From contig NZ_JAQNDN010000024.1 in NCBI RefSeq assembly GCF_028369095.1, positions 89,350 to 153,349 on the forward strand: a DNA stretch of 64,000 nt, written 5' to 3'. The translations under genes were made by a program, and so were the position numbers. The notes under the pieces were generated by a model. It did not search any database, had not been told where the DNA came from, and worked only from the letters and a program-made list of their open reading frames with translations. Position 1 is the stretch's first letter. Every line of letters begins with the position of its first letter. Below, one piece after another: positions 2,365 to 50,607 of this stretch. This DNA is from Nannocystis radixulma (GTDB lineage Bacteria; Myxococcota_A; Polyangia; Nannocystales; Nannocystaceae).

Positions 2365-5300
2365 TCAGGGCTTGGGCTGCGCGGGCTCGACCGGGGCCAG
2401 GGCCTTGGGCGCGGCGGGAGTCTGGGCCTTGAGGCGCTTGCGTCGCGGCTCCCACACGGCCTTGGGCCGCAGGGGGATCCGGCCGCCGAACAGCGAGAAG
2501 TAGCGCTGCGCGCCGTCGTTGCCGCCGCCGATGAGGCCGAACAGGGCGCGCCAGTGGAGGCCCTTCTTGACGCCGATGCCGTCGCCCTTGGCGTCGCTGA
2601 TCGCCTGCTCGGTGCGCCACCACCAGCCGAGGCCGGGGCCGATGACCTGGGTCTCGCGGCCGCGGCCGCGCTGACGGGCCCAGATGGCCGGCACGACCTG
2701 CGTGACGCGGCCCTTGCGGCGGATGTCCCACCACAGGAAGGCGCCGAAGGTGCCCGAGTTCTCGCCGCGCTCGATGTGCCAGATCAACGGGAACTGGACC
2801 CAGTCGTTGTCCTGGCCGCGCCGGCGCTGGAACACCAGGGCCGGGAAGACGCTGGTGAAGCTGGTGTCCTTGGCCCAGTTGTTGTCGCGCAGGAACAGCG
2901 GCAAGAGCCAGGTCATGCGCCGCTCGGCGTAGCTGTGCGCGGTGTAGAAGAGCGGCGGCGCGACCACGGTGGTCACCTTGTGCGGTCGGCGGAAGTTCCA
3001 GACCATCAGCCCGGCCTGGAACCACCGGTAGTCCTCGCGGTGGGCGCCGACGAACAGCGGCGGCAGCACGACGGTAGTGCTGCGATCCTTGGTGCGGTAG
3101 GCCTTGCGGAAGAACAGCGGGAAGAAGACGGTGGTCTTGAACTGCCGCGTGGTCGTGTGGCCGAAGTTGAGCGCGTACCAGGTGAGGCGCTCGCCGGGCC
3201 GCACGTTGGCGCCGCCCAGCAAGGTGAGGAACCGGCGGCCGCCCGGGTCCTTGTCGAAGTAGTAGAGCATCAGCGCGCCGTGGCTGGTGCGGCCCTTGCC
3301 GTCCTTGCCGTAGAGGAAGAACGGCCACGAGCCCCACAGCGTGTAGCGGCAACGATCGTCGTCCTCCTCGCGGAAGCCGCACTTCTGGTAGCGGAACGCG
3401 AACGGGACCACGCCGGTGAAGCGGTAGTTCTTGTGCAGGCGGAAGAAGTCGAAGAAGATCGGCGGAGCCAGGCTGAAGCGCGTGAAGTTGAACTGACCCT
3501 TGACGCCGACGACGAACGGGAACGCGACCCACGAGCGGCGACCGTTGGCCCGCTGACGGTCGAACCAGAACGGCACGGCGATGGTGGTGTGCTCGTTCTT
3601 CCCCTTGTCGGCCTGGTGGAAGATGAGCGGCAGCGAGATCAGGCGCCGCTTCTCCGCCGAGTCCATCCACCAGTAGACCGGGACCACACCGGCGTTGAGC
3701 GAGGTGCGGGTGAGGCGGTGGAACGCCGGGCCGGCGATGAGCGTGTGCGTGCGCCGGACCTTGTCGCGGCTGTAGAAGAACGGCAGCAGCAGGCCGGCGT
3801 CGACGTCGATGCCCTCGGGCTGGCGCTGGCGGAAGTAGAACGGGACGACCGCGAGGTTCTTGCGCGGCTTCTCGCCGCGCGTGGCGGTCCGCCAGACCAG
3901 CGGCGACCACATGTCGAGGTCCTCGCTCGGCGCGCGGTGGCGGGCGAACAGCGGCGCGATGACGAGGTTGCTGGCGACGCCGCCCTCGACCTTGCGCCGA
4001 TCGTAGAACACCAGCGGGATCAGGCCGAAGCCGCGGCGGACCGGATCCTTGTAGCCGCGGAAGCCGTAGAGGAGCGCCGCGGCCGACCAGGTGCGCTGCT
4101 CCGGCGTGCGGTAGGCGCCGCCCAGCGGGGTGAGGGTGAGCGTCTTGCCGTCCTTCTGGCGCCGGTAGAAGAGGGGGAACAGCGCGGTGTGGCGCTCGTC
4201 GCCGGCGCGCTTCACGTCCCAGAACAGGTTGAGCACGCCGATCGTGCGGTGGTCGGGGCCCTTGCTGCGGGCGAACAGCGGCGACACCGTCAGCGCGCGC
4301 TGGGCCTCGACGTCGTGGACATGTCCGAAGAGCAAGGGCGGGACGATGCCGTAGCGGTACTTGTCGTCGCGGCCGGCGAACACCAGCGGGGCGAGGCCGC
4401 CGTGACCGCCGGACTTGACCTTCTTGGCGTAGATCGGGCCGAGCACCCACAGGTCGCTCGGCTTGGCCGGGTCGGTGTCGCGGCGGTGCCAGAACAGCGG
4501 GGTGATGGTCTGGTACGAGCGGGTGCCGTCGCGGCCGACGAACGCGAGCGGGGCGAGGCCGGCGTCCCAGCGCTCGCCGCGGCGGCGGTAGAAGCCGAGC
4601 ACGCCGGCCGACAGCGTGCGCGAGCCCTTGCCGTCGTAGGCGCTCGGATCGTGCGAGTGGCCGAACAGCGGCGTGACGACCTGGAAGCTCTTGCCGCCCG
4701 GCTCGTTGCGCACGAACGTCAGCAGCGGGGTGATGCCGAAGCCCCAGCGGCCGTCCTTGCCGGCGCGACCGCCTCCGAGCAGGGTGTAGACCCGCGTGTC
4801 CTGCGGGCTCTTGCGCGCGTACAGCAGCGGGACGAACACGCTGCTGGTGACGCCGGCCTTCACGTCGCCGAACTGCCAGAACAGCGGGAACAGCACCCGG
4901 TTGCGCTGCTCCGGGTCGCGGTAGCTGACCCATGGGAACGCCGACCAGGCGACGCTGCCGCGGTCGCGGTTCTCGGAGCGCCACACCAGCGGCGTGGCCG
5001 AGAACAGCTTGCGCGTCGGGGTCTGGTGCGAGAACGTGAGGAGCGGCGGGACGGCCCACGCGCGCAGGCTGCGGGCCTTGTCGCTGCGCTGCACGTACAG
5101 CAGCGTCCACAGGTCCTTGCGGTTGCCGTACTCGCTCGACTGCCAGTGCACGAGCGGCAGCACCGTGTGCCACTTGACCCCGCGGGCCTTGTTCTGCCCG
5201 CCGATGTAGAGCGGGACGCCGACGTTGACGGTGCTCGGGCCGCGGGTCACGCGGTAGAACAGCGGGAAGCCGACGAAGTAGCGCAGGTCGTTGAGCGGGT

Positions 5301-6414
5301 CCTTGTCGGTGGTGTTCTTGTGGCCGTACCAGAACAGCACCGCCGAGAAGCCGCGCATGCTGTCGGGCGTCTTCTGGTGGTAGTGGAAGGGGACGACGAT
5401 CAGGTTCTTGACCGACTTGTTGCCCCACCGCCACACGAACGGGAACTGGCCGAAGCTGAACTGCTCGCCGACCCGCTTGTAGCCCATCAGCAGCGCGACC
5501 GCGCCCCAGCCGCTGGTGCGCTCGCTGAACGAGCCGAAGAACAGGATCGCCGGCGACAACCACCGCCGCTTGGCCGTGCGCTGGCTGTACCAACCTGTCG
5601 TCAAGGACAGGTTGAAGTGGAACAGCTTCTCGGGGTGGGTCGCGGTGCCGCGGCGGTCGAAGAACAGCGGCGGCAGCGTCAGCGCGCGCGTGCGGTGCGT
5701 CGTGTAGGTGCGGTCGATCCAGAACGGCGGGACGCTCTTGCCCTTGAGGAAGCGCGGGACCTCGTCGGCCGGGTCGGGCTTCTCCGGCTCGGGCACCAGC
5801 ACCGTCACCGGCGGGGCGTTGTCGTTGGTCGGCTCCGGCGCCGGCGCGACTTCCTCGTCGCCGGCCTGGAGATCGTCGCCGCTCGGCGCCGGCGCGAGGT
5901 TCGGGGTCGGCCGCGTCAGCGGGCTGCCCGTGGGGCCAGGTCCCGAAGGCCCTGGCTGAGCGGGCATGTCCTCGGGGACAGGCTCGACCGGCGCGGCCGT
6001 CTCGCTCGCGGGCGGCTCGCTCGCGGGCGGCTCGCCGGCGGGCGGCTCGGCCTGGCCGCCGGGCAGGCGCCGCGGGGTGGTGCGCGGCGGGGCGAGCAGC
6101 AGCGGCGCGCCGAGGCCGGCGACCAGGTCGGCGGGGCGCAGCCCGGGCGCGGCGTGCAGGGCCGGCCAGGTCGGCGCGCCGGTCGAGGCGATCATGCCGA
6201 GCTGCGGGACGGGGCCCGCGGCGTGGCTGTCCCGAGGGACAAGTCCGATCAGACAGGCGCCGATCAGGCAGGCCGACACTGTGGCGACGCGCGTGTGGAT
6301 GACGGCGCCGACGACCGGGACGTCGCCGGGCGCGTCGAGCTGGGGACTCGCGTCGGCGCCTCCGAGGCGCACAGTGGGCTCAGAGGCGACCAAGGGCCGG
6401 GAGGCAATAGCCAA
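2365..6414 (-). CDS. Giant (~1350 aa) tandem-repeat protein with ~50 copies of a 20-24-aa unit around a P-L-F / P-L-(L/V)-x-W core; probable N-terminal signal-anchor and Pro-rich linker; no confident family
   Basis: Uninterrupted ORF with protein-like Y/F/W/K/R-rich repeats such as ...TPLFWHRRDTD, ...APLVFAGRDDKY, ...PLFYRRQKDG. N-terminus has a hydrophobic segment VATVSACLIGACLIGLV then P/E/A-rich spacer. The true start may be downstream of 6414, since the 5966-6414 region contains GGACA-family repeats. Confidence 0.7.
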   Translation of the reverse strand: MAIASRPLVASEPTVRLGGADASPQLDAPGDVPVVGAVIHTRVATVSACLIGACLIGLVPRDSHAAGPVPQLGMIASTGAPTWPALHAAPGLRPADLVAGLGAPLLLAPPRTTPRRLPGGQAEPPAGEPPASEPPASETAAPVEPVPEDMPAQPGPSGPGPTGSPLTRPTPNLAPAPSGDDLQAGDEEVAPAPEPTNDNAPPVTVLVPEPEKPDPADEVPRFLKGKSVPPFWIDRTYTTHRTRALTLPPLFFDRRGTATHPEKLFHFNLSLTTGWYSQRTAKRRWLSPAILFFGSFSERTSGWGAVALLMGYKRVGEQFSFGQFPFVWRWGNKSVKNLIVVPFHYHQKTPDSMRGFSAVLFWYGHKNTTDKDPLNDLRYFVGFPLFYRVTRGPSTVNVGVPLYIGGQNKARGVKWHTVLPLVHWQSSEYGNRKDLWTLLYVQRSDKARSLRAWAVPPLLTFSHQTPTRKLFSATPLVWRSENRDRGSVAWSAFPWVSYRDPEQRNRVLFPLFWQFGDVKAGVTSSVFVPLLYARKSPQDTRVYTLLGGGRAGKDGRWGFGITPLLTFVRNEPGGKSFQVVTPLFGHSHDPSAYDGKGSRTLSAGVLGFYRRRGERWDAGLAPLAFVGRDGTRSYQTITPLFWHRRDTDPAKPSDLWVLGPIYAKKVKSGGHGGLAPLVFAGRDDKYRYGIVPPLLFGHVHDVEAQRALTVSPLFARSKGPDHRTIGVLNLFWDVKRAGDERHTALFPLFYRRQKDGKTLTLTPLGGAYRTPEQRTWSAAALLYGFRGYKDPVRRGFGLIPLVFYDRRKVEGGVASNLVIAPLFARHRAPSEDLDMWSPLVWRTATRGEKPRKNLAVVPFYFRQRQPEGIDVDAGLLLPFFYSRDKVRRTHTLIAGPAFHRLTRTSLNAGVVPVYWWMDSAEKRRLISLPLIFHQADKGKNEHTTIAVPFWFDRQRANGRRSWVAFPFVVGVKGQFNFTRFSLAPPIFFDFFRLHKNYRFTGVVPFAFRYQKCGFREEDDDRCRYTLWGSWPFFLYGKDGKGRTSHGALMLYYFDKDPGGRRFLTLLGGANVRPGERLTWYALNFGHTTTRQFKTTVFFPLFFRKAYRTKDRSTTVVLPPLFVGAHREDYRWFQAGLMVWNFRRPHKVTTVVAPPLFYTAHSYAERRMTWLLPLFLRDNNWAKDTSFTSVFPALVFQRRRGQDNDWVQFPLIWHIERGENSGTFGAFLWWDIRRKGRVTQVVPAIWARQRGRGRETQVIGPGLGWWWRTEQAISDAKGDGIGVKKGLHWRALFGLIGGGNDGAQRYFSLFGGRIPLRPKAVWEPRRKRLKAQTPAAPKALAPVEPAQPKP

Positions 6415-6430
6415 TCCACGTTTGCCGTGT

Positions 6431-16432: not shown

Positions 16433-17747
16433 GGCTGGCGCCACGGACATGTCCCAGGGGACACGTCCGCGGGGCCGTCGCGTCCTGCTGATCGTCAGCG
16501 GCGGGATCGCGGCCTACAAGGCGCCGGAATTGGTGCGGGCGTTCGTCGCCGCCGGCTGCGAGGTCCAGGTGGTGATGACGCCGGCCGCGGAGGCGTTCGT
16601 CAGCGCGCTGTCGCTGGCGACGGTCTCGACCCGGCCGGTGCGCACGCGCCTGCTCGACCCGGAGGAGGAGGGCCACGTCGGCCACATCGAGCTCGCCGAC
16701 TGGCCCGACCTGGTGGTCGTCGCGCCGGCCACCGCCGACCTGCTGGCGCGCGCGACCCACGGGCTGGCGAACGACCTCGCGGCGACGGTGCTGCTGGCCA
16801 CGCGCGCGCCGGTGCTGTGGGCGCCGGCGATGAACACCAACATGTGGCGCCACCCGGCCACGCAGGACAACCTGGCGACGCTGCGCGCCCGCGGGGCCGA
16901 GTTCGTCGGGCCCGATCGCGGGCAGCTGGCGTGCGGGTGGATCGGCGAGGGCCGCATGATCGATCCGCCGCTGATCGTCGCCGCCGCGCTGGCGCGGCTC
17001 GGCGTCGGCCCGGCGAGCCGCGGGCCGTGGGCCGGCAAGCGCGTGCTGGTGTCGGCCGGGCCGACGCGGACGTACATCGATCCGGTCCGCTTCGTCACCA
17101 ACGCGTCGACCGGGGCGATGGGCTTCGCGCTGGCCGACGCGGCCCAGCGCGCCGGCGCCTCGGTGACGCTCGTGGCCGGACCGGTCGAGCTGGTCACGCC
17201 GGCGGGCGTGCGCCGCGTCGACGTCGAGACCGCGGCCGAGATGCAGGCGGCGCTGGAGAACGAGCTGTCTCAAGGGCCATGTGATTGGGTGGCCATGGTG
17301 GCGGCGGTGCAGGACCTCGAGATCGACGGCGGTGCCGCGCGCAAGCTCGAGAAGGCGGAGCTGCTGGCGACGCTGCCGACGCTCGGCTGGCGGGCCGCGC
17401 CCGACATCCTCGCCGCGCTGACGGCCCGCTTCGGCCGCGGCGCGGCGCCGGGCGCCCCGCGCTCGCGCTTCCTCGGGTTCGCGGCGCAGACGGTCGAGGA
17501 TGGCCCCGAGGACAGGTTGCAGCAGGAGCTGATCCGGCTCGGCTCGGTCAAGCTGCGGGCCAAGGGCGCCGACGCGATCTTCGTCAACCGCGTCGGCGCG
17601 CCCGGGGTCGGCTTCGCGTCCGCGACCAACGCCGGCCTGTTGCTGGCGCGCGACGGCGACGCGATCGCCGTGCGCGCCTCGGGCCCGCCGATCGCCAAGG
17701 CGGCGCTGGCCGCCTGGCTGCTCGACGCGCTGGCCGCGACGAGCTGA
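16425..17747 (+). CDS. coaBC: Bifunctional phosphopantothenoylcysteine decarboxylase/phosphopantothenate-cysteine ligase CoaBC
   Basis: RVLLIVSGGIAAYKAPELVR flavoprotein domain plus C-terminal CoaB ligase domain. The likely start is ATG at 16449, inside a GGACATGTCC repeat. Confidence 0.9.
16445..16468. repeat. GGACA-family palindromic repeat pair (GGACATGTCC-cagg-GGACACGTCC) at the ribBA/coaBC junction
   Basis: Read directly. The internal ATG (16449) is the likely coaBC start. Confidence 0.8.
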
Positions 17748-17761
17748 CGGAGGATCTCGCA

Positions 17762-19198
17762 GTGGAAGGCGATCGACGCGACGCGACCCGGCGGCTGGCG
17801 GTTCAGTTCGCCGCCCACCTGCGTCACCTCCGGGAGTTCCGGGGTTTGGCGTACGTGTCCGCCGCGTCCTCTCCGCGTCGCGCCGGCGCGCCGAGTTCCG
17901 CGCCCGAGGAGCGATCGCCGGCTCCGGACAGCACCTGGTCGTCCGGACAGGTGACCGATCACGCCGCCGCGGACGCGCGCACACCGACATGGCCCGAAGA
18001 CCAGGCCAGATCCGCCCGCGATTCCGGGCCGCGAGCGCGCACACAACCGGGCCCGGCGGCCTCGGGGCCGCCGCCGCAGGAGATGAAGCGAGGGCGCGCG
18101 CAGCCGGGCCCTGCGGACTGGGAGCCGTCGCAGGAGACGACACGCGGTCGCGCGCAGGCGGGCCCCGAGGACTGGGAGCCGTCGCCGCAGCCGGACCCCG
18201 GGGACTGGGAGCCGTGGCCGCCGCAGGAGACGACACGCGGGCGCGCGCAGCCGGGCTCCGGGGACTGGGAGTCGTCGCAGCAGGAGACGACACGCGGGCG
18301 CGCGCAGCGGGAGTCGCCGCCGCAGGAGCCGACGCGAGGGCGCGCCCAGCGGGGCCCTGCAGAGTGGGAGTCGTCGCCGCCGCAAGAGGCACCGCGCTCA
18401 CGCGCCGCGACCCCGCCGTCCGCGGAGCCGCCGCGCGCTCGCACGGTCAACCAGCAGCCGGCCGAGCCGTCGCCGCGACCCCGGACGGTCAGCCTGCCGC
18501 TGGCGGATCAGGGCACACCGCCGCGTGCGGCCGAGGGCGCGCCGCGCCCGGCCGGCGATGCCTCGCTGCGCACGCAGGCTCAGGCGTGGACGCCGGCGCA
18601 GAAGCTCGAGTACTTACGGGCTCGTAACGTCGGCGACTGCACCCGCTGCAAGCTCTCGAAGACCCGCACGAACATTGTATTCGGCGTCGGCGACCCCAAC
18701 GCGCGGGTGATGTTCATCGGCGAGGCGCCCGGCGCGGACGAAGATCGGCGCGGCGAGCCGTTCGTCGGCGCTGCCGGCCGGCGGCTGACACAGTGGATCG
18801 AGCGCCTGGGCATGAAGCGCGAGCAGGTCTACATCGCCAACGTGCTGAAGTGCCGGCCGCCCGGCAACCGCGAACCGGCCGCCGACGAGATCGAGAAGTG
18901 CTCGCCGTTCCTGCGCGCCCAGATCCGGGCGATCCGCCCCGCGGTGATCGTGGCGCTCGGCAGGTACGCGGGGATGTTGCTGATCGGCACCGATCAGGAT
19001 CTGAAGTTGGCACAGATGCGCAACCGTCGTTGGACCTACGACGACCCAGGTGCAGGCCTGCAGATCCCACTTCACGTCACGTATCATCCGTCGTACGTGA
19101 TCCGACGCGAGGGTGAACTCCCTCCGGGGCAGCGAAACCCGGCCGACGACACGGTGATGTCGGACCTCGAGCGAGCGCTGCGCGTGCTGCGAAGTTGA
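17762..19198 (+). CDS. Family-4 (UdgA-type, Fe-S) uracil-DNA glycosylase with long N-terminal disordered tandem-repeat extension
   Basis: C-terminal ~200 aa: [52 protein letters not shown]...HPSY. GTG at 17762 is preceded by GGAGG at 17749-17753, just after the coaBC stop. The nearest in-frame ATG is at 18083, so at least ~165 aa of repeat region is translated. Confidence 0.7.
18075..18410. repeat. Tandem ~57-bp coding repeats (protein units ..[18 protein letters not shown]..) in the udg 5' region
   Basis: Read directly. Both strands show long ORFs here purely because of the repeat. Confidence 0.7.
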
Positions 19199-19413: not shown

Positions 19414-20073
19414 ATGACGAAGGCTGAACTCATCGAAAAAATCGCACGCAACCGTGATCTGCCGCCGGACATCACGAAGAAGTGCGTGCAGCAGATCCTC
19501 GAGATCGCGTTCGGGGAGATGGCCGCCTACTTCGTCAAGGCGAGGGTGACGCGGGCCCAGAGCCCGCGCTTCACGTTCCCCGGCTTCGGCACCTTCACCA
19601 AGAAGAAGCGCTCGGCTCGCAAGGGCGTCAACCCGCGGACGCTCGAGCCGATGACGATCGATGCGGCCTTCACGATCGACTTCCGTCCGGGCGTCGAGCT
19701 GCGCGCCAGCCTCAACGCTCCGGCTGGCAAGTCCGCCCCCGCGGCTCGGAAGCGGCGCGCCAGCCCGGCCCAGCTCGAGCTCGAGCCGCCGAGCGCCGAT
19801 CCGACCGAGCTCGACGAGGTCGACGAGGAGGATGTCGGCGAGATGAGCGACGAGGCCGACGCGGCCGACGAGGCGCTGATCCTCCGCCGCCGCTTCACCG
19901 CCCGCGAGGACCTCGAGGAGGACGACGCCGACGACGAGTTCGACGAGGTCTCGCTCGACGTGCTGCGCCGCAGCCAGCCCGCCGACCCGCGGCTCGAGCT
20001 GCCGCCGGCGCCGATGCAGCGCGCCGACGTGCCGGGCCGCCGCGCCCACGTACGCACCGGCTCGCGCTCCTGA
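19414..20073 (+). CDS. HU/IHF-family DNA-binding protein with ~120-aa Asp/Glu-rich C-terminal tail
   Basis: MTKAELIEKIA...RFTFPGFGTFTKKKRSARKGVNPRT is the HU fold. The tail is ...DEVDEEDVGEMSDEADAADE...EEDDADDEFDE. Confidence 0.85.
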   Translation: MTKAELIEKIARNRDLPPDITKKCVQQILEIAFGEMAAYFVKARVTRAQSPRFTFPGFGTFTKKKRSARKGVNPRTLEPMTIDAAFTIDFRPGVELRASLNAPAGKSAPAARKRRASPAQLELEPPSADPTELDEVDEEDVGEMSDEADAADEALILRRRFTAREDLEEDDADDEFDEVSLDVLRRSQPADPRLELPPAPMQRADVPGRRAHVRTGSRS

Positions 20074-20180
20074 GAGCTGTCCCGGGGGACATGGCAGCAG
20101 CCGGCCGACCCGCGGCTCGAGCTGCCGCCGGCCGATGCAGCGCGCCGGCTCGCGCTTCTGAGAACTGTCCCCGCGGACAT
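19961..20180. repeat. Partial tandem duplication of the 3' end of the HU-like gene, ending in GGACA-family motifs
   Basis: gccgacccgcggctcgagctgccgccgg...gctcgcgct(c/t)ctgaga(g/a)ctgtccc..ggacatg occurs twice: 19975-20092 and 20093-20180, with internal deletions. Confidence 0.6.
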
Positions 20181-20218
20181 GAACGAAGGGCCATGACCTC
20201 ACGGTCATGGCCCTTCGT
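20181..20218. terminator. Perfect 17-bp-stem hairpin (AACGAAGGGCCATGACC-tcac-GGTCATGGCCCTTCGTT) between convergent genes
   Basis: Read directly. Lies between the HU-like gene stop (20073) and the minus-strand lipoprotein stop (20248). Confidence 0.6.
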
Positions 20219-20247
20219 TCACTGAGGGCGGACGAGCGGTCGCCGGC

Positions 20248-20802
20248 TCACTGCGGCGCGGCCAGCTTGGCCCCGTTCTTGGGCGGCTCGGTCGGCTTGG
20301 GGGTGCCGGTCAGGGTGGCGGGCTTGGTCGTCGGCGCAGCGCCGCCGTTGGAGATGGTGCTGGTCTTGGGCTTGGACTCGCCGGTGGTGAGGCTGAGGCC
20401 GGCCTTCTGCGTGCCGTCACGCGGGGTGGCCTGGGTCCCCGGATCGAGGCGGGCCGGCGTGGGGTCGGTGGCGCGGCCCGGCTTGGGATCGGTGGCGCGG
20501 CCCGGCTTGGGGTCGGTGGCGCGGCCCGGCGTGGGCTCTTCGGTCGGCTCCGGCGCGGGCTCGGGAGTGGTGGTGGCGGGCTCGGGCTCGGGGGCAGGCT
20601 TGGGGGCGGGCTTGGCAGCGGGAGCCGGAGCAGGTGTGCTCGACGTGTCGACCGCGGCCTGGCGCGCCGGCTTGCCCTTGCCGTTCTTCGTCCCGTTGGT
20701 GGTGCCTGGCGCCGTTCCGGAGCGGCTCGACGACGAATACGAGAAGGAGCAGGCGGGCAGCGAGAAGGCGATGGCCATGAAGACCGGAAGGAGCTTGCGC
20801 AT
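20248..20802 (-). CDS. Putative secreted/lipoprotein, Pro/Thr/Ala-rich low-complexity with GRATDPKP x3 repeats
   Basis: Signal peptide MRKLLPVFMAIAFSLPAC. The alternative plus-strand ORF lacks protein-like features. Confidence 0.55.
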   Translation of the reverse strand: MRKLLPVFMAIAFSLPACSFSYSSSSRSGTAPGTTNGTKNGKGKPARQAAVDTSSTPAPAPAAKPAPKPAPEPEPATTTPEPAPEPTEEPTPGRATDPKPGRATDPKPGRATDPTPARLDPGTQATPRDGTQKAGLSLTTGESKPKTSTISNGGAAPTTKPATLTGTPKPTEPPKNGAKLAAPQ

Positions 20803-21054
20803 AAAACCTCGGCGTCCAGGACGCGCGACTTAGTGTCTTATTCAGGAGGGGGTCGGGCCAAGGGGTAGCCTCGCGCGGGGCGGCATCGCCCGCCAGCAGC
20901 GAGCTCACGGCGACGGAGATCGACGCGTGCGAGGGCCGATACCGCCCGCGTACCGCACAAGGGCCGATCCGGCGGCCTGGCCACCTCTACGCGGCCGTTC
21001 GCGGCGAGAGGGCCATTATCACCCGTCGTCTGTGAGGGTGCGAGGCGGCTTTAC

Positions 21055-21070
21055 AGACCGGTGGGGGTCT
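21055..21070. promoter_or_regulatory. Imperfect palindrome AGACC-ggtggg-GGTCT upstream of the TetR gene (candidate operator)
   Basis: Read directly, about 57 bp upstream of the TetR ATG. Confidence 0.2.
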
Positions 21071-21126
21071 CCGTTAGCGTGGAGGCCGGGGGCGCTGGCC
21101 AGGCGCCGGGAGGGTGGGGAGCAGCG

Positions 21127-21720
21127 ATGACACGCCAGAAGATCGACGACCAGCGCAAGCAGCAGATCAGGGCTGCGGCGACGCGGTGCTTCGTGCGCCG
21201 CGGCTACTCCTCGACGCGGCTCCTGGACATTGCCCGCGACGCCGGCCTCAGCAAGGGCGGGGTTTACTTCCACTACAAGGCCAAAGAGTCGCTGTTCCAC
21301 GACATCCTGGACGCGCAGCTCCTGGCCCTGCAAGAGCGCTGGGCGGCGGACGTCCCGCCGGACCTGCCGGCCGACCGGGCGCTCGCGCAGGTGGCGGCCA
21401 ACCACCTCCGCCTGTTCGTGGAGCACGGCGACGAGGCCAAGCTCTGCAACTTGCTGGTGACGATGTCGGGCCAGATCCAGGAGTACCGCGAGAAGCTCGA
21501 GAAGACGTTCGCCGAGATGCGCACGGCCTACGCCGAGATCGTGCGCCGCGGCGTCGAGCAGGGCGTGCTGGCCGGGGACCCGCAGGTGGTGGCCCGCGGC
21601 ATCATCGCCGTGATCTACGGGCTGGCGGCCCAGGCGTCGGTCGACCCGCAGGGACGGATCCCGCTGACGGTGGAGCAGGCCGTCGAGCAGATCATGAGGC
21701 TCGCGGGCTCGCGGGCCTGA
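21127..21720 (+). CDS. TetR family transcriptional regulator
   Basis: IRAAATRCFVRRGYSSTRLLDIARDAGLSKGGVYFHYKAKESLF helix-turn-helix. GGGAGGGTGGGGAG ribosome-binding site upstream. Confidence 0.85.
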   Translation: MTRQKIDDQRKQQIRAAATRCFVRRGYSSTRLLDIARDAGLSKGGVYFHYKAKESLFHDILDAQLLALQERWAADVPPDLPADRALAQVAANHLRLFVEHGDEAKLCNLLVTMSGQIQEYREKLEKTFAEMRTAYAEIVRRGVEQGVLAGDPQVVARGIIAVIYGLAAQASVDPQGRIPLTVEQAVEQIMRLAGSRA

Positions 21721-22972
21721 AGTCGTCGTCGTCGCCGCTGTCGACGGGCCGCGTGAAGCGGACCCCGCCGAGGCCGACCCACCCGTCGTCGGGACCGACC
21801 GGGCGGCCGGACGCGTAGGCGACGAGGTCGGCCCCGTAGCCGACAGGGAACAGACGCGCAGCGGTGACGAGGGCCGCGGTGCCGCTCGGCGGGTCGAGGC
21901 CCGGGACGCCCTTGCAGCAGCGTTCCAGCTGCTCGGGCCGCGCGTCGGCCAGGGCGGCCAGGCAGGCCCGGTCGCGGGCCACCAGGGCGGCGGCCCGCTC
22001 CCTCGTCAGCGGCGCGCGCCCGTAGGCGGGCCCCTCGTGGCCGAGCTCGGCGGTCACCCACCAGAGCACGCGCCTGTCCTCGAGGACATGTTCCATGGTA
22101 GCGAGGAAGCTCTCGACCGGGCCGCCGTCGTCGAGCTCGATCGCCCCCGGGCCGCACAGCACCGGGAGTACCGGAGGACATGCTCCATCGTACAGGTGCT
22201 GAAGGACAGCCGCGGCGAGCTCGAGGCTCAGCGCCTCGCGGTGGCGGATCTCCTCGCGCCGGATCCACGGCAGGCGGCGGTCGAGCGCGCGGACCAGCGC
22301 CGGGTCGCTGGCCAGCTCGCCGCGCGGGGTGGCGTAGCGCTTGTCGGTGATGACGAACGGCTGCAGGCCGGGGTGGTAGTCGGTGCCGACGACGACGACG
22401 AGGTCGATGTCGCGGGCGCGCGGCAGGCCGCGCAGGACCTCGTCGCTCAGGCCGGCGGCGGCGTGGACGGCGGCGTCGGGCGGCGCGGCGCCGGTGCCCG
22501 GCAGCGGCTGGTGCGGCAGGAGCACGCCGAGGACGTCGCTGGCGTCGGCGAGCCTGGCCGAAGGGTCAGGTAGTGCGGCGGCCAGGGCGGCGCCGAGGGC
22601 CGTCGGGTCGTCGGGGTAGAGCAGGCCGGCCCAGCGCGGCCGCCTCACCGGGTTGGCCAGGAACTCGCGGTGGATGGCCTCCCAGCGGGCGCGGAAGGCG
22701 TCGTCGTCGAGGTAGCCGGCGCTCTCGAGGTCGCGCACCAGGGCCTCGAGGTCGGCGAGCGGGATGTCGATGATCCCGCGCATCGCCAGCGACTGGCGCA
22801 GCTGCGGCACGGTGCGCTGGCCGTCGAGCGCGTCGAGGATGACGGAGGCCTCCTGCGGGAAGGCGACCTGCTCGCTGAGTCCGGTCGGGTCGCGCAGGAC
22901 GAGCAACGCCTCGTCGCCGCGCTGCAGCGCGACGCGCTCGACTTTGCGGAGCCTGGGCTTGTCGGTGGCCAT
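21692..22972 (-). CDS. MEMO1/AmmeMemoRadiSam-protein-B-like protein with extra ~90-aa N-terminal domain
   Basis: MATDKPRLRKVERV...RRPRWAGLLYPDDP (cf. R..AG.WY)...LVVVVGTDYH...EEIRHREALSLE (cf. EHSIE). ATG lies 2 bp after the stop of the upstream gene. Confidence 0.7.
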   Translation of the reverse strand: MATDKPRLRKVERVALQRGDEALLVLRDPTGLSEQVAFPQEASVILDALDGQRTVPQLRQSLAMRGIIDIPLADLEALVRDLESAGYLDDDAFRARWEAIHREFLANPVRRPRWAGLLYPDDPTALGAALAAALPDPSARLADASDVLGVLLPHQPLPGTGAAPPDAAVHAAAGLSDEVLRGLPRARDIDLVVVVGTDYHPGLQPFVITDKRYATPRGELASDPALVRALDRRLPWIRREEIRHREALSLELAAAVLQHLYDGACPPVLPVLCGPGAIELDDGGPVESFLATMEHVLEDRRVLWWVTAELGHEGPAYGRAPLTRERAAALVARDRACLAALADARPEQLERCCKGVPGLDPPSGTAALVTAARLFPVGYGADLVAYASGRPVGPDDGWVGLGGVRFTRPVDSGDDDDFRPASPRAS

Positions 22973-22974
22973 CG

Positions 22975-24690
22975 TCAGTTGCTCGCGCAGGGATCGTCGA
23001 GGTCGGGGAACAGGCCGCGGACGGCCCGCTGGGCGCTCGTGGCCAGCTCCTCGCGCTTGCTCGCGGCGCACAGGGCCGCGCGCACGTCGTCGGACGGGGC
23101 CGCCTTGTCGTCGGCGTAGCGCTGCAGGGCGCGCACGAGGCGGAGCGCGACCGCGAGGTCGTCGGTGCTGCGCAGTACGGCGGCGACGACGTCGGCGCCG
23201 GCGCTGCCGTGGCGATCGACGAGCTGGCGCGCGGCCTCGGCCCGCCGGTCGACGTTCTGATCGGCGTCGACCACCACGGCCTGCAGCGCGGCGAAGGCGT
23301 CGGGACCACCGCAGCGGCCGAGCGCGGCGATGACCTCGCGCGCGACGGTGGCGTCGGTCTCGAAGGTGTTGCCCGAGGTGCTGGTGCCGTCGCGCAGCCG
23401 GCGGAGGAGGCCCGCGGAGCACGGGCCGTCGACGCGGGCGAGCGCGGCTGCGCGGACCTCGGGCCAGGCGTGGCGCTGGCTGACGTCGAGCCAGGCGCCA
23501 TCGGCCGGCAGGGTGGCGACGGCGAAGGCCGCGACGGCGACCCGCGGCGCGTCGGCGCCGGTGAGCTGCAGGCGGTCGACGACGGCGGCGGCAGGGCCGG
23601 GCTCGAGCCCGGCGAGGGCGAGGCTGCCGAGGATCTCGCTGCGCAGCTCGACGCGCTTGTCGGCGGGCAGGTGCTGCTCGGCGAGGCGCGCGAGCACCGT
23701 CTGCGCCGCGGGATCGCTGCGCCGCGCGACGAGCACGCGGAGCGCGGCGACGCGGGCGGCGAACTCGGCAGCGGCGTCCTCGGCGAGGGCGGCCGCGCGC
23801 TGGGTGAACACGCCGTCGTCCCTGCCGCCGATCGCAGCCCGCAGCAGCACGAGGCCGGGCAGGCGCGCCGGTTCGCGGGCCTCGATCGCGGCGTCGACGA
23901 CCTGCACGAGCTGGGCCCGCTCGCCGGCGGACGCGTGCGCGCGGCGGGCGATCGCCTGGCGCAGCGCGGCGCGCAGGCTCGGCGCGCCGAGGCCGACCAG
24001 CGCGACGAGCTCGGGCAGCTTGTCGGCCGGCGTGACGGCGACGAGGTCGGCGAGCAAGAGGCCACGCAGCTCCTCGCTGAACGACTTCTCGGCCACGAGC
24101 CCGGTGAGCGCGGGCGCGGCCGCGGGGCCCTGCGCGCGCAAGATCTCGCGCCATGGTTCGGCGGCCGGCAGCTCGATGCCCTGCTCCTGCGACTGCTTGG
24201 CCGCGGCGGCGACGTCGCGGCGCATGGCGTCGGCGAACAGCGGGACGTCCTCGGGGCGGGCGATGCCGCCGAGCAGCGCGAGCAGGCGGCGCTGCTCGAC
24301 CGCGGTGGGCGCGGGCGTGGCGGTCATGCGCGCGGTGACCAGCGGCGCGGCGACGGTCGGGTGCTGCTCGAGCCGCGCGCGGGCCTGCAGGTAGTCCTGG
24401 CCGCGGCCGGTGAGCACGAGCTCGATGTCGGCGCGGGCCTGCTCGGGGCCGTAGGCCGGCGGGATGGGGGCCGGAGCGGGCTCGGGGGCGGAGGCCTTGG
24501 CCTTGCCGCCGCGGGCCGGCGCGAGGGCCAGGAGCGGGCCTGGCCGTTCGGACATGCCCGAACGCACCTGGCCGCCAGGACCTGCGCCGAGGGACATGCT
24601 CGAACCGCCAGGTGCCGCGCCGGCGAGCGCGAGCCAGGCGATCAGCGAGAGGGCCGACAGGGGGGTCGCCACGGGGGACAAGACTGCCAC
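22975..24690 (-). CDS. Secreted all-alpha (HEAT/ARM-like) repeat protein
   Basis: 571 aa. Signal peptide MAVLSPVATPLSALSLIAWLALAGAA. Leu/Ala-rich helical repeats. The N-terminal region carries GGACA-family copies. Confidence 0.55.
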   Translation of the reverse strand: MAVLSPVATPLSALSLIAWLALAGAAPGGSSMSLGAGPGGQVRSGMSERPGPLLALAPARGGKAKASAPEPAPAPIPPAYGPEQARADIELVLTGRGQDYLQARARLEQHPTVAAPLVTARMTATPAPTAVEQRRLLALLGGIARPEDVPLFADAMRRDVAAAAKQSQEQGIELPAAEPWREILRAQGPAAAPALTGLVAEKSFSEELRGLLLADLVAVTPADKLPELVALVGLGAPSLRAALRQAIARRAHASAGERAQLVQVVDAAIEAREPARLPGLVLLRAAIGGRDDGVFTQRAAALAEDAAAEFAARVAALRVLVARRSDPAAQTVLARLAEQHLPADKRVELRSEILGSLALAGLEPGPAAAVVDRLQLTGADAPRVAVAAFAVATLPADGAWLDVSQRHAWPEVRAAALARVDGPCSAGLLRRLRDGTSTSGNTFETDATVAREVIAALGRCGGPDAFAALQAVVVDADQNVDRRAEAARQLVDRHGSAGADVVAAVLRSTDDLAVALRLVRALQRYADDKAAPSDDVRAALCAASKREELATSAQRAVRGLFPDLDDPCASN

Positions 24691-24700
24691 GCCTCGCCGC

Positions 24701-26065
24701 TCAGCGCAGCACGATCGTCTCGATCTGCCGGCGCGACATGACGTACGACAGGAGGAGCGCGCGCTTGTCCGTGGCTTGAGTCACGTCGAGCAGGCGCAGG
24801 AAGTCGGCGCTCTCGGAGTCGGCCTCGGCCTGGTTGGCGATCATCCGCTGGACGATCTCGACGAGCGCGCCGGCCTTGAGCGGGGTGTCGGTCGGCATGC
24901 GGAGGAAGAAGCCGAAGTACTCGTGGGCCACGCCGGCCATCTGCAGGCCCTCGGGGCGCGGCAGCAGCAGCTGGAGCAGCCCGCGGCGGCCCTTCGACAT
25001 GCCGCCGAAGCCGAGCTCGCGGACGGCGGCCTCGGTGGCGACGGCGAAGAAGCCGGCGTCGACCGGCACGCCGACGACGAGGCGGTCGACCTCGCGGGGC
25101 AGTGTGCGCTTGCCGCGGGCATAGTTGGCGGCGATCTCGTTCATGACGCCCGGCGGCGCGACGACCAGCTCGCCGCCGTCGAGCACGCGCAGCAGCACCT
25201 CGCCGCCGTGGTAGCGCAGCGGCGTGAGCGCATAGGCCCGCTCGCCGCGGGGGAGCAGGCGGCCGGCGGCGACCGCGGCCTCGAGCTTGGCGGCGAGGTC
25301 GGGGATCTCGATGATCGCGGCGGAGCGGGTGAAGTCGCCGTGCGCGAGGGCGAACGCGCCGCGGGTCCAGACCGCCGCGGTGTCGTCGCCGAGGGCGCGC
25401 GCGACCTGGCAGGTGGCGTCGGCGAACACCGGCTCGGGCCGGCGCGGGCGCCCCTCGGCCTCGGCCTGGGCGCGCCGCTTCTTGTACGCCTCGGTCCGCT
25501 TCTTCTCCTCGGCGACGACGTCGGACATGGCCTTTTGGACAGTCACACCTGTCTCTCGGGACTTGCGCTGGGCCTTGCGGAAGATCCGGACGTCGTCGAG
25601 CTGGTCGCGCACGTGCGGGTCGCAGGTCATGACGTACTCGGCGATCTCGTCGAGCTGCTTGGCCAGCGGCGCGGCCATGAGGCGCTGCATGTGGGCGTGG
25701 AAGACGACGTCGAAGTCCTTCGGCAGGAAGCGGGCGGTGTAGGGCAGGTGGCCGCGGCGGGTGTCGGTCTTGCCGGCGTCCCAGAAGCGGCGCAGCGCGG
25801 CCTTGAGGTCCTCGGGTCGATCCTCTTTCTCGTACAGCTTCACGAGGCGCAGGAGGCCGTCGGTGACCAGCTCGCGGCGATCGGTGCGCTCGTCGAGCAG
25901 CGCCTCGAAGTGCTCGATCGCGCAGTCGCGGCGTTCGATCTCCTCCATGCAGTGCACGCCCTTGCGGTGCAGGCGCTCGGCGCTCGACTCGCCGCCGCGG
26001 ACCGACGCGGGCGCCAGGGCGAGCAGGGCGAGGGAGGCGGCGGCGAGGAGCGTGCGGGCGGACAC
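24701..26065 (-). CDS. Hypothetical secreted protein (454 aa), first gene of a three-gene minus-strand operon
   Basis: Signal peptide MSARTLLAAASLALLALAPASVRG. Balanced composition. 10-bp gap to the next gene. Confidence 0.55.
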   Translation of the reverse strand: MSARTLLAAASLALLALAPASVRGGESSAERLHRKGVHCMEEIERRDCAIEHFEALLDERTDRRELVTDGLLRLVKLYEKEDRPEDLKAALRRFWDAGKTDTRRGHLPYTARFLPKDFDVVFHAHMQRLMAAPLAKQLDEIAEYVMTCDPHVRDQLDDVRIFRKAQRKSRETGVTVQKAMSDVVAEEKKRTEAYKKRRAQAEAEGRPRRPEPVFADATCQVARALGDDTAAVWTRGAFALAHGDFTRSAAIIEIPDLAAKLEAAVAAGRLLPRGERAYALTPLRYHGGEVLLRVLDGGELVVAPPGVMNEIAANYARGKRTLPREVDRLVVGVPVDAGFFAVATEAAVRELGFGGMSKGRRGLLQLLLPRPEGLQMAGVAHEYFGFFLRMPTDTPLKAGALVEIVQRMIANQAEADSESADFLRLLDVTQATDKRALLLSYVMSRRQIETIVLR

Positions 26066-26145
26066 TGCGGCGAGGATGGCACTGTCGCGCGGCGGGGACC
26101 ACTTGTGTGCGGCGGCAGGGGTGTGTCAAAACCCGCGCGCGAGCG

Positions 26146-27171
26146 ATGGGTCCCGAAGCCTACGACTACGTGTTACCGCCCGAGCAGATCGCCCAGACGC
26201 CGGCGGCGCGGCGCGGCGATGCCCGCATGCTGGTGCAGCGCGACGCGGGGGCGCCGGTCCACGCGCACGCGCGTGAGCTGCCGCGCTTCCTCGACGCGCG
26301 CGCGCTGGTCGTGGTCAACGACTCGCGGGTGGTGCCGGCGCGGCTGCGGGTGCAGCACAACGGGCGCGAGCTGGAGTTGCTGGTCTGCGATCCGCGGCCG
26401 GGGCTGTTGCCTGGGCAGACGTTCCGCGCGTGGGTCCGCGGGGCCAAGCGGCTGCGGGCCGGCGACGTGGTGCGCTGCGGCGAGTGGGTGGCCCGCTACG
26501 TCGAGCCCGACGTCGTCGACCCGCGGGCGCGGGTGTTCTGCGTCGAGGCCGGCGAGTGGATGGGCGCGCTCACGAGTCGCGGCGAGGTGCCGCTGCCGCC
26601 GTACATCCGCCGGCCCGCGGGGCCGACCGACGAGGACGCGTCGCGCTACCAGACGACCTACGCGGCGCAGCCGGGCTCGGTGGCCGCGCCGACGGCCGGG
26701 CTGCACTGGGAGCCCGAGGTGCTGGCGCAGCTCGACGTCGTGCGGGTGACGCTGCACGTCGGGCCGGGCACGTTCCTGCCGCTCGAGGCCGAGGATGTCC
26801 GCGAGCACAAGGTGGGCGCCGAGCGGGTCGAGCTCGACGCGACGGCCGCGAGCCGGATCGCGGCGGCGAAGGCCGAGGGCCGGCCGGTCGTGGCCGTCGG
26901 CACCACGGCCACGCGCGCGCTCGAGGCGGTCGCCCGCGCCGGCGAGATCGCGCCGTTCTCCGGCACGACCGACCTGGTGATCGCGCCCGGCTTCGAGTTC
27001 AAGGTGGTCGACGCGATCGTCACCAACTTCCACCTGCCGCGCAGCTCGCTGCTGATGCTGGTGTGCTGCCTCGGCGGGCGCGAGCGCGTGCTCGCGGCCT
27101 ACGCCGAGGCGGTGGCCGCCGGCTATCGCTTCTACTCGTACGGCGACTGCATGCTGCTCACGCGCCTCTGA
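26146..27171 (+). CDS. queA: S-adenosylmethionine:tRNA ribosyltransferase-isomerase QueA
   Basis: MGPEAYDYVLPPEQIAQTPAARRGDARMLV...GEVPLPPYI...APTAGLHW...AVGTTATRALE. Confidence 0.9.
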   Translation: MGPEAYDYVLPPEQIAQTPAARRGDARMLVQRDAGAPVHAHARELPRFLDARALVVVNDSRVVPARLRVQHNGRELELLVCDPRPGLLPGQTFRAWVRGAKRLRAGDVVRCGEWVARYVEPDVVDPRARVFCVEAGEWMGALTSRGEVPLPPYIRRPAGPTDEDASRYQTTYAAQPGSVAAPTAGLHWEPEVLAQLDVVRVTLHVGPGTFLPLEAEDVREHKVGAERVELDATAASRIAAAKAEGRPVVAVGTTATRALEAVARAGEIAPFSGTTDLVIAPGFEFKVVDAIVTNFHLPRSSLLMLVCCLGGRERVLAAYAEAVAAGYRFYSYGDCMLLTRL

Positions 27172-27595
27172 GTGCATAGGACATGCTCGGTGGAGCATGT
27201 CCTTGCGGACAGCCATCTCCGTCCGGGAGAGCATGTCCTCTTGGACATGGTACATGCGACACCGCCGCGCTCGCCGCCGCTCGATGAGCCGTCCCGCACG
27301 GCGACAAGCGGGGCCGGCGACGCTCTTCGCAGGCGGGCACGGAGCGGCGGAGTGGGACGCCGGCGGGAGGGGCCGCAGGCAACCGCGCGCAGGCGCCATC
27401 GTCCGCCAGGCACGAACGAACCTGTCCTCAACGACGGATCAACATCGAAGCCCACGGGCGCCGAGCACGTTGCCTGGGAGGGCCCCGCCGAAGCGAGCCG
27501 AAGCGAGGGACCTGCTCCGCCGCTCCGTGCCCGCCGTCACCCAGCTCTCCACGGCCCCGCGTCTTCGGTCGCGCGCTTGTCTCAGACAGGCCCCT

Positions 27596-42150: not shown

Positions 42151-43029
42151 TCAGCCCTTGACGCCGCCGGCGGTGAGGCCGGCGATGAGGTGGCGCTGGG
42201 CGATGTAGAAGAGGATCATCACCGGGATCGAGACGATCAGCGAGCCGGCGGCGAACTTGGGCCAGTCGGCGCTGAACTCGGAGATGTAGCGCTGCAGCAC
42301 CACCGGGACGGTGTACATCTCCTCGCGACCGAGCATGGTGTGGGCCAGCACGAACTCGTTGTAGGCGCTCATGAAGGCGAACAGCGCGGTGACGGCGATG
42401 GCGGGACGCGCGGCGGGCAGGACGACCTTGAGGAAGGCCTCGAAGCGGGTCGCGCCGTCGACCATCGCGGCCTCCTCGAGGTCGCGCGGGATGGTCTCGA
42501 AGGCGCCGCGCAGCTGGAAGATGGCGAACGGGACGGCGGTGGTGGCGTAGCAGAGGACCAGGCCCGAGCGGGTGCCGAGCAGGCCGAGGCCGTCGAGGAT
42601 GATGTAGAGGGGGATCGCGCTGGCGACCGCGGGGAACATCTGCGTGGCCAGCAGCGCGCGCACGCCCGAGTCCTTGCCGACGAACTCGAAGCGGGCCAGG
42701 GCGTAGGCGGTCGGCACGGCGATGACGACACCGACCAGCGCGGTAGCCAGGCTGATGACGATCGAGTTGGCGAGCTGCAGGCCGAACAACCATCGGTCGG
42801 GGCCGCCGGGCACCTCGAGGGTCGAGAAGGCGACGCCGCGCAGGTGCTCGAGGGTCGGCTCGATCGGGACCGGGATCACCCGCGCGGTCGGCTCGACGGC
42901 GCCGGAGAAGGCGAGCGAGATGACCCAAAGGACAGGATAGAGGGCGAACGCGACGGCGACGATCAGCAGCAGGTGGGCGCCGATCGACTCGGCGAGGCTG
43001 ACCCTGCGACCCTGCCCGGAGGCGCTCAT
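42151..43029 (-). CDS. malG: Carbohydrate ABC transporter permease (MalG-like)
   Basis: EAA loop ...EEAAMVDGATRFEAFLKVVLP... Six TM segments. Start ATG at 43029 (MSASGQG). Confidence 0.85.
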   Translation of the reverse strand: MSASGQGRRVSLAESIGAHLLLIVAVAFALYPVLWVISLAFSGAVEPTARVIPVPIEPTLEHLRGVAFSTLEVPGGPDRWLFGLQLANSIVISLATALVGVVIAVPTAYALARFEFVGKDSGVRALLATQMFPAVASAIPLYIILDGLGLLGTRSGLVLCYATTAVPFAIFQLRGAFETIPRDLEEAAMVDGATRFEAFLKVVLPAARPAIAVTALFAFMSAYNEFVLAHTMLGREEMYTVPVVLQRYISEFSADWPKFAAGSLIVSIPVMILFYIAQRHLIAGLTAGGVKG

Positions 43030-43174
43030 CGATCGACCTCGCTGGTGAACGTGGGGTGGATGGTCGTCACGGCATGTCGTGAGAGGCATGTCCCGGAGGA
43101 CATGGTCACGGGGGCATGCTCGAAGAGACCCGTGGCCAGGCGACGAGGGGCAGGGGCAGAGCGCTCGCGGTGGA

Positions 43175-45370: not shown

Positions 45371-45414
45371 GTCCGGGCGGACATGCGCGAATCGACAGGC
45401 TCTCGCGGACATGC

Positions 45415-45420
<6 letters not shown>
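45345..45420. repeat. GGACA-family array of 5 copies (GAGGACATGTCC..GCATGTCC..GGACATGCGC..GACAGGCTC..GGACATGCTC) at the malK / SBP-permease junction
   Basis: Read directly. Confidence 0.8.
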
Positions 45421-46488
<1,068 letters not shown>

Positions 46489-46494
46489 GAATCG

Positions 46495-48453: not shown

Positions 48454-48480
48454 GGGTGCCTCCGTTCGCGAAAGTCCGCG

Positions 48481-50115: not shown

Positions 50116-50172
50116 GGCGTCGTCGCAAGTGGTACTCCGAAGCGACGACGGTTGTCGAGCGTGGATCGCGGG

Positions 50173-50481
50173 CTACGTCAGACGAGTCTTGCAGAGGCGC
50201 AGCATCTCGCGGTCGGCGGGGTCGTCCTGCTCGGCGACGAGGGCCTGGATCGGCCCGAGAGCGGCGTCGTGGGCGACCCGCATGGTCCGGGTGAACTGGG
50301 TCGGGGCACCCTGGGTGTAGACGAGTTGCCGCAGGGCGTGTCGCCGATCGTCGGCATTACCCTGGTTGAAGGCGGGGCTGCTGAACAGGTCGCGATAGCC
50401 CTGATAGGCGGCGTCGACGTCGCCGCGGCGGAAGTCCGAGGTGATCTGCGCGAGGGCCTGGATCATCTGTTGTGACTGCAT
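50173..50481 (-). CDS. Small hypothetical protein (102 aa)
   Basis: GGAG plus 7 nt plus ATG. MQSQQMIQALAQITSDFRRGDVDAAYQGYRDLF... The longer ORF upstream is a low-complexity artifact. Confidence 0.4.
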   Translation of the reverse strand: MQSQQMIQALAQITSDFRRGDVDAAYQGYRDLFSSPAFNQGNADDRRHALRQLVYTQGAPTQFTRTMRVAHDAALGPIQALVAEQDDPADREMLRLCKTRLT

Positions 50482-50607
50482 GAGTGGCTCCGTGAAACCC
50501 GTAGCACCACAAGGCAGACGCGCACGGGGCTGCACGCGGCGGCCGGCAGGAGAGCCCGGCGTGATACGCTGGGGCCGATGCGTGGGGGAGGTCGGCACGT
50601 CCGTGTG

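Follow-up and report, generated by a model that had tools for sequence, protein, structure and literature searches.

The DNA analysed here, referred to as the window, is a stretch of 64,000 nucleotides from Nannocystis radixulma (contig NZ_JAQNDN010000024.1, positions 89,350 to 153,349). It carries three consecutive minus-strand genes, designated g1, g2 and g3, of which the last encodes a fusion of an RRE domain with a Memo domain. The window has a GC content of ~74%, and GC content by codon position reveals three successive minus-strand coding frames between 21.7 and 26.1 kb (Table 1). The gaps between them are 10 bp (g1-g2) and 2 bp (g2-g3), bearing out the description of three closely packed minus-strand genes given in an initial reading of the bare sequence (the sequence-only reading). 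Each gene product has a 100%-identical database entry (Nannocystis radixulma or Nannocystis sp.); the NCBI version of g2 comprises 565 residues, with an implied start at 24672. The three genes probably form an operon that is co-transcribed in Nannocystis-like lineages.

Table 1. Coordinates of the three genes, the two domains of g3 and the flanking genes in the window (GC3, GC content at third codon positions).
Feature	Position	Strand	Description
g1	24701-26065	minus	454 residues, GTG start; GC3 frame
g2	22975-24690	minus	571 residues, GTG start; GC3 frame
g3	21692-22972	minus	426 residues, ATG start; whole gene with stop; RRE-Memo fusion
g3, RRE/PqqD-like winged helix	22649-22972	minus	residues 1-108; predicted structure
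g3, Memo / LigB-type domain	21743-22648	minus	residues 109-410; fold match and residue mapping
TetR-family regulator	21061-21720	plus	Pfam TetR_N; convergent with g3
queA	26107-27171	plus	Pfam Queuosine_synth, E 1e-102; divergent from g1

An RRE domain fused to a Memo domain

The g3 protein matches the Memo profile PF01875 with 44.0 bits (cutoff 27), its residues 112-352 covering profile positions 2-215 of 269, and the model TIGR04336 with 43.6 bits (cutoff 26) from about residue 110. Approximately 105 residues precede the Memo domain. Its AlphaFold model, obtained with 29 family members, has a predicted local distance difference test score (pLDDT) of 89.9 and a predicted template modelling score of 0.86. 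When this model was compared with the PDB using Foldseek, human MEMO1 was the best match (E 1e-12, template modelling score (target) 0.73-0.76), followed by class III extradiol dioxygenases of the LigB type. In comparison with human MEMO1 (PDB 3BCZ, 7KQ8, 7L5C), to which it is ~14% identical, g3 shares the fold, the N-terminal AGxxYP motif and equivalents of H49, D189 (as Glu) and H192; it adds the RRE domain and, following the PHQP motif, 14 inserted residues that mark the N. radixulma clade. The sequence-only reading had called g3 a Memo-like protein with an extra N-terminal domain and had named a PF01875 match as the test of this; both the profile score and the MEMO1 fold agree with it. It had also remarked on the missing AMMECR1 and radical-SAM partners, and indeed neither domain was detected among the window proteins scanned (335-54372), nor were such partners found adjoining g3 homologs in related Nannocystaceae loci. 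The public name of g3 (NCBI, JGI) is “AmmeMemoRadiSam system protein B”. The protein has no N-terminal hydrophobic segment or signal peptide and is predicted to be cytoplasmic.

The N-terminal domain of g3 has an RRE/PqqD-type peptide-recognition fold. Three strands (residues 12-18, 21-27 and 36-39) precede three helices (42-48, 55-64 and 72-85), which is the order of elements found in RREs, and a linker helix (91-106) leads to the Memo domain. A conserved PxLRK tail is also present at the N-terminus of g3. The isolated domain was modelled with a pLDDT of 93 and contains the same elements as the full-length model. Its structural matches (scores in parentheses) include TfuB1 with leader peptide (8.1), TbiB1 (7.5), the PbtF RRE (7.4), ThcOx and LynD (6.9) and PqqD (6.6), and then MccB, TbtB, NisB, MibB and TglI. 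Winged helices unconnected with peptides that are ribosomally synthesized and then modified post-translationally (RiPPs) also rank high, namely PKMT2 (7.7) and MINA53 (7.2). At the profile level, the two best PDB matches are the PaaA RRE (E 0.006) and PqqD (E 0.23); with the distant group described below included, the PaaA match reaches E 9e-4. All 19 family members tested have an acidic domain (isoelectric points 4.4-5.4, that of g3 being 4.8), and helix 3 of g3 is itself acidic (LADLEALVRDLESA); this acidity throughout the family argues against DNA binding. We assign both the RRE and the Memo identity of g3 with high confidence. RREs fused to Memo-like proteins (PF01875) were reported in the 2025 update of RRE-Finder, which described them as “unprecedented in RiPPs”, listed a model RREFam044 “Memo_RRE” with a value of 20, presumably its bit-score cutoff, in its supplement and assigned the fusions no function or substrate (PMC12710340). 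Thus, the extra domain that the sequence-only reading had left without explanation is present, but it is an RRE/PqqD fold and belongs to a fusion that is already catalogued, although uncharacterised.

Searched against 1.84 billion representatives, a profile of Nannocystaceae g3 proteins had 4826 matches at E<=1e-3, of which 692 reached E<=1e-30. With few exceptions, the 150 best matches are ~400-430 residues long and covered over both domains, and the Nannocystaceae-like sequences are followed by a plateau of distant full-length members. Aligned by hhalign, this distant group and the Nannocystaceae family match from residue 1 to ~405 (probability 100%, E 2.6e-71), linking g3 by full-length homology to a large group with the architecture of the RREFam044 fusions. 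The distant group has its own motifs (PHID / GTDH / DLAHVGP). Using a narrower alignment of this group to scan one GTDB genome per species, we identified at least 584 RRE-Memo loci and analysed the best 80 of them, almost all from Chloroflexota (Anaerolineae, Thermoflexia and Caldilineae) with a few from Acidobacteriota and Armatimonadota. Clustering of all open reading frames (ORFs) within 5 kb of these 80 genes revealed no true recurring neighbour in more than eight loci; a cluster seen in 22 of the 80 proved to mix histidine kinases with response regulators, at positions that vary, and was rejected as paralogy noise. Similarly, a search for precursor peptides (ORFs of 12-110 residues within 900 bp) at the same loci revealed no recurring peptide, and the small ORFs near these distant homologs were no more than off-frame readings of adjacent genes, from genomes that are closely related. 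With neither a recurring neighbour nor a recurring small ORF, these loci do not look like RiPP gene clusters. The gaps within g1-g2-g3 of the window likewise leave no space for a precursor-peptide gene.

On one Chloroflexota-like metagenome contig (L011, 8214-11209), genes for an ABC ATPase and an ABC-2 permease directly precede a canonical RRE-Memo gene on the same strand with a 22-bp gap, and downstream an 87-residue ORF is read from the opposite strand. None of the 80 genome loci repeats this arrangement.

In human MEMO1, iron and copper are bound by H49, H81 and C244, whereas D189 and H192 are not ligands; either H49A or C244S abolishes iron binding (PMC11081632). We mapped these positions onto the RRE-Memo proteins through an alignment of the distant group with MEMO1 and a profile-profile alignment. 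At the positions of H49/H81/D189/H192/C244, the distant group has H-H-D-H-C in ~105 of 110 sequences and thus keeps the H-H-C ligands. In contrast, the Nannocystaceae branch lacks the Cys ligand, the C244 position being nearly always Ser, and varies at both His ligands (H/Y/S at the first, H/Y/L at the second); its D189 position is Glu and its H192 position is His. In g3 of the window, H49 corresponds to His154 (motif HQPL), H81 to Tyr199 (motif TDYH, with His200 adjacent) and C244 to Ser363, while the non-ligand positions D189 and H192 correspond to Glu309 and His312. Of the three proven ligands, two have thus been exchanged for other residues, and g3 lacks the MEMO1-type metal triad. The sequence-only reading had taken several ligands in the HQPL and TDYH motifs to be substituted: both motifs are present and the second ligand is indeed a tyrosine, but the first is kept, and the change of the third had been missed. 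Its suggestion of a non-catalytic paralog is plausible, since with two of three ligands replaced g3 may well be non-catalytic or re-purposed. Many residues are nevertheless invariant in the Nannocystaceae branch, for example in WIRREEIRHR and AELxHxGPA, and such invariance in the pocket and elsewhere points to a protein under constraint rather than one in decay.

The cluster across related genomes

Both g1 and g2 look exported, each with one N-terminal hydrophobic segment, as the sequence-only reading had proposed. Hydropathy analysis of g1 identifies a Sec-type signal peptide (MSARTLLAAASLALLALAPASVRG) and no further hydrophobic segment, and its four cysteines are invariant in the family alignment. 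All named members among its 97 homologs belong to Nannocystaceae, Myxococcales or Myxococcota. The family matches no Pfam model and its profile matches no PDB sequence; Pfam/NCBIfam identities as Ferritin (E 0.035) and TPR (E 0.3) were rejected as noise. The best-conserved stretch of g1 lies directly past the signal peptide, at residues ~26-55 (ESSAERLHRKGVHCMEEIERxxCAIEHFE). Rich in His, Cys, Met and Glu, it is a possible metal-binding motif that matches no known family.

The g2 protein is an Ala/Leu/Arg-rich alpha-repeat protein (23% Ala) with four cysteines. Three conserved Cys columns are invariant in its family, and the fourth cysteine lies close to the C-terminus. While g2 of the window alone has no Pfam match at E<=0.1, HEAT_2 (PF13646) matches 10 of 23 family members (best E 2.6e-9), and positions 396-508 of the family profile match alphaRep HEAT-like structures (E 1e-11). 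These matches support the earlier assignment of an all-alpha repeat, and NCBI names the protein “HEAT repeat domain-containing protein”. At the family level, g2 is thus predicted to be HEAT-like, of the PBS-lyase type.

We compared 50-odd related loci using hidden Markov models (HMMs) of g1, g2 and g3 together with tblastn searches of reference neighbours. Five arrangements were found, all within one syntenic block that is bounded by secDF-yajC-tgt-queA on one side and by tetR on the other, the tetR side comprising tetR, a lipoprotein gene, sometimes an MMPL transporter, HU, uracil-DNA glycosylase (UDG), coaBC and ribBA. The order queA-g1-g2-g3 (type A) is found in the window and 12 other long loci (13 in total), with g2 identity down to ~45%, and seven short contigs additionally have g2 immediately upstream of g3. 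In the distant locus L092 the order is queA-g2-g3, without g1 and with a 4-bp overlap of g2 and g3 (type B; g2 HMM E 1.9e-39). In four loci (type C), queA-g2 is followed by a Kelch gene on the minus strand, a Ser/Thr kinase gene on the plus strand and a PEGA-like gene on the minus strand before g3 is reached, placing g2 ~5 kb from g3. Enhygromyxa salina and three others have the same inserted genes without g2 (type D). Finally, in Plesiocystis pacifica and L127 queA is followed directly by g3 (type E). Homologs of g1 in Paraliomyxa and in a Myxococcota metagenome-assembled genome are located at unrelated loci without g2 or g3.

The inserted genes encode a Kelch-like beta-propeller, a Ser/Thr protein kinase and a ~400-residue membrane protein, and lie between queA or g2 and g3 in L001, L005, L093, L112, L117, L120, L124 and L129. 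The ~400-residue gene of the Enhygromyxa-type loci is divergent from g3, the two annotated genes lying 3-186 bp apart. Judged by its sequence, the product resembles PEGA/TPR-like membrane proteins, and neither BLAST nor HMM tests indicated a relationship to g1 or g2.

The constant gene of this block is g3. Its neighbour g2 is old and can become detached from it or disappear, and g1 is a later addition at the locus. Such a pattern is better explained by descent of a syntenic block in which genes were locally inserted and lost than by a three-part system in which every part is obligatory. The sequence-only reading would have been refuted had the cluster been kept in no relative, which the 13 long loci show not to be the case. 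Its notion of a module in the sense of a fixed functional unit does not hold, as g3 occurs without g1 and g2 in Enhygromyxa, Plesiocystis and others, g2 may lie 5 kb away and g1 stands alone elsewhere.

Neighbouring genes in the window

The upstream boundary of the cluster is queA, whose annotated start lies 41 bp from that of g1 and which serves as the synteny anchor, being at the equivalent position in all long related loci. Beyond it lie further housekeeping genes (uppP, hflX, a response regulator and a Clp-type ATPase). On the opposite side, tetR adjoins g3 in all examined related loci that reach beyond g3, with the exception of L092, and its orthologs at related loci are 47-59% identical. 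At their 3' ends, g3 and tetR share 29 bp (21692-21720), with no space for a terminator between them, and the situation in L006 is similar. Past tetR are the lipoprotein, HU and UDG genes, ribD, ribE, ribBA and coaBC.

Several of these genes deserve comment. Between the HU gene and tetR, positions 20248-20802 of the minus strand encode a 184-residue lipoprotein with the lipobox LPAC|S and a Pro/Thr/Ala-rich tail containing three copies of GRATDPKP. Its N-terminus (..ACS[FC]SYSSS) is kept at the same position in Nannocystaceae loci. Being divergent from tetR, this gene may be a TetR target. A plus-strand ORF in the same GC3 phase (20207-20833) was rejected in its favour. The HU-type DNA-binding protein (19414-20073, plus strand) has its domain in residues 1-101 and a C-terminal tail of ~120 residues that is strongly acidic (EEDVGEMSDEADAADE..., EEDDADDEFDE); the HU proteins of relatives are also long (163-241 residues). 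The UDG ORF (17285-19198, plus strand) spans 637 residues, of which just 466-611 constitute the UDG domain, and in related loci the gene encodes 164-377 residues. Ahead of the domain, at ~17.7-18.6 kb, GC content is ~0.7-0.9 at the three codon positions, with weak frame contrast. The ORF may have a miscalled start or a long low-complexity extension.

Elsewhere in the window, a 1354-residue ORF (2365-6429, minus strand) has a strong coding signal (GC3 0.97) and no Pfam match at E<=1e-5. A maltodextrin/starch utilisation cluster at 42151-52716 comprises an ABC permease, a MalK-type ATPase, two alpha-amylase family enzymes and a LamB-type porin, and is followed by a cytochrome P450 gene (52963-54372).

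A possible role for the Nannocystaceae RRE-Memo proteins

Taken together, these results incline us, with moderate confidence, to view g3 as probably a metal-free, peptide- or protein-binding RRE-Memo paralog encoded in a lineage-specific operon. Three observations are new here. The Nannocystaceae branch is an RRE-Memo variant whose metal triad is degenerate; no neighbour or nearby small ORF is common to the 80 species-genome loci that match best; and the g1-g2-g3 cluster is lineage-specific, its order being kept only in Nannocystis-like lineages.

How such a protein might work can be proposed only tentatively, and we would sooner expect the following scheme to fail than to hold. Through beta-strand addition, an extended peptide segment in a substrate or partner would be bound by the RRE and offered to the pocket of the Memo domain. 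The pocket of MEMO1 itself reportedly also binds peptide (Qiu et al., 2008). In canonical members, mainly Chloroflexota among those seen, which keep His-His-Cys, the bound peptide might undergo metal-dependent chemistry. In the Nannocystaceae branch, the triad is eroded (to His154, Tyr199 and Ser363 in g3) and other pocket residues are invariant, a combination for which a binding factor would be the most likely role: a peptide- or protein-binding protein that is metal-free or differently metallated, rather than a MEMO1-type metalloprotein. The cluster would have arisen by descent with local insertions in a syntenic housekeeping block, and any link of g3 to g1 and g2 is putative.

Several points weigh against this picture. 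PF05402 (PqqD) matches the N-terminal domain below threshold, in 13 of 19 family members with a best E of 5.5e-4 and in g3 of the window with E 0.1, and a Foldseek search with the isolated domain model gave no significant match. The metal site may be remodelled rather than lost, since metals can be coordinated by Tyr and Ser, as when Tyr binds Fe(III). Among the sequences examined, no candidate substrate peptide was found. Tight g2-g3 junctions of 2 bp and 4 bp in two distant lineages could reflect a facultative functional link between these genes. As for co-transcription, a promoter and terminator scan of 20000-27500 returned zero sites, a result that is uninformative at 74% GC.

Comparison with characterised RRE proteins also sets g3 apart. 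In contrast to the RRE-fused RiPP tailoring enzymes TigE, LynD, ThcOx, PaaA and NisB and the discrete RREs TfuB1/TbiB1 and PqqD, g3 and its distant relatives have no conserved precursor-peptide gene, protease or dedicated exporter beside them, and the g3 gene is located in a housekeeping block, not in a biosynthetic cluster. A parallel may be offered by MINA53 and NO66, oxygenases that act on proteins and have a winged-helix substrate-recognition domain. This is an analogy, as their catalytic part is a JmjC cupin that is not homologous to the LigB/Memo domain and their domain order is different.

The main rival explanation is that g3 matures its neighbours: its RRE would bind the N-terminal region of pre-g1 or pre-g2 before Sec export and g3 would modify or chaperone that protein. 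Tight gene coupling, the g2-g3 overlap in the distant L092, the long residence of g2 at the locus and the position of the His/Cys/Met/Glu-rich g1 stretch, its most conserved, directly after the signal peptide are all in line with this idea, and RRE-associated precursors with Sec signal peptides have precedent, e.g. in DUF2063/DUF2282 systems (PMC12710340). Against it stands the fact that the genes can be separated, as g3 persists without g2 in Enhygromyxa-type loci, Plesiocystis and L127, the two are 5 kb apart in four loci and g1 occurs alone at unrelated loci. Furthermore, g1 and g2 are proteins of 450-570 residues, not peptides, and the degenerate triad of g3 makes catalysis doubtful. Overall, we judge maturation of g1 and g2 to be unlikely. 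A related proposal, which we find decidedly unlikely, holds that RRE-Memo proteins are widespread leader-guided factors acting on proteins or on peptides encoded elsewhere instead of on clustered RiPP precursors, and that the Nannocystaceae branch is a catalytically dead descendant, left with peptide binding alone, that would use its RRE as a pre-export chaperone or targeting factor for g2 (in Nannocystis also for g1) ahead of Sec export.

It is very unlikely that g3 is an ordinary AmmeMemoRadiSam protein B whose two partners, AMMECR1 and the radical-SAM protein, lie at other places in the genome. The TIGR04336 score exceeds the cutoff and the public names agree, but the score is low for a full-length match, partner domains are missing from the scanned window proteins and from the vicinity of related Nannocystaceae g3 genes, and no recurring neighbour accompanies the 80 chiefly chloroflexotal loci. 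The family moreover has a conserved RRE domain and motifs of its own, and in g3 the metal triad is lost. Finally, that the winged helix-turn-helix binds DNA and makes g3 a ligand-sensing transcription factor, as its fold and the constant TetR neighbour might hint, is highly improbable given the acidic domain with its acidic helix 3 and the strand-then-helix order of RREs.

RRE domains are the main class-independent handle on peptide-modifying pathways, and Memo proteins are functionally obscure from bacteria to humans; the RRE-Memo family joins the two in hundreds of lineages. The absence of a clustered precursor at the 80 loci suggests that Memo chemistry is directed at peptides or proteins and that the substrate is unlinked, and for these proteins the annotation “AmmeMemoRadiSam system protein B” is probably misleading. 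In human MEMO1, metal binding is abolished by the same Cys-to-Ser replacement that is seen in Nannocystaceae, where the architecture is otherwise unchanged. A comparison of the two RRE-Memo branches could therefore reveal roles of the Memo pocket beyond metal binding.

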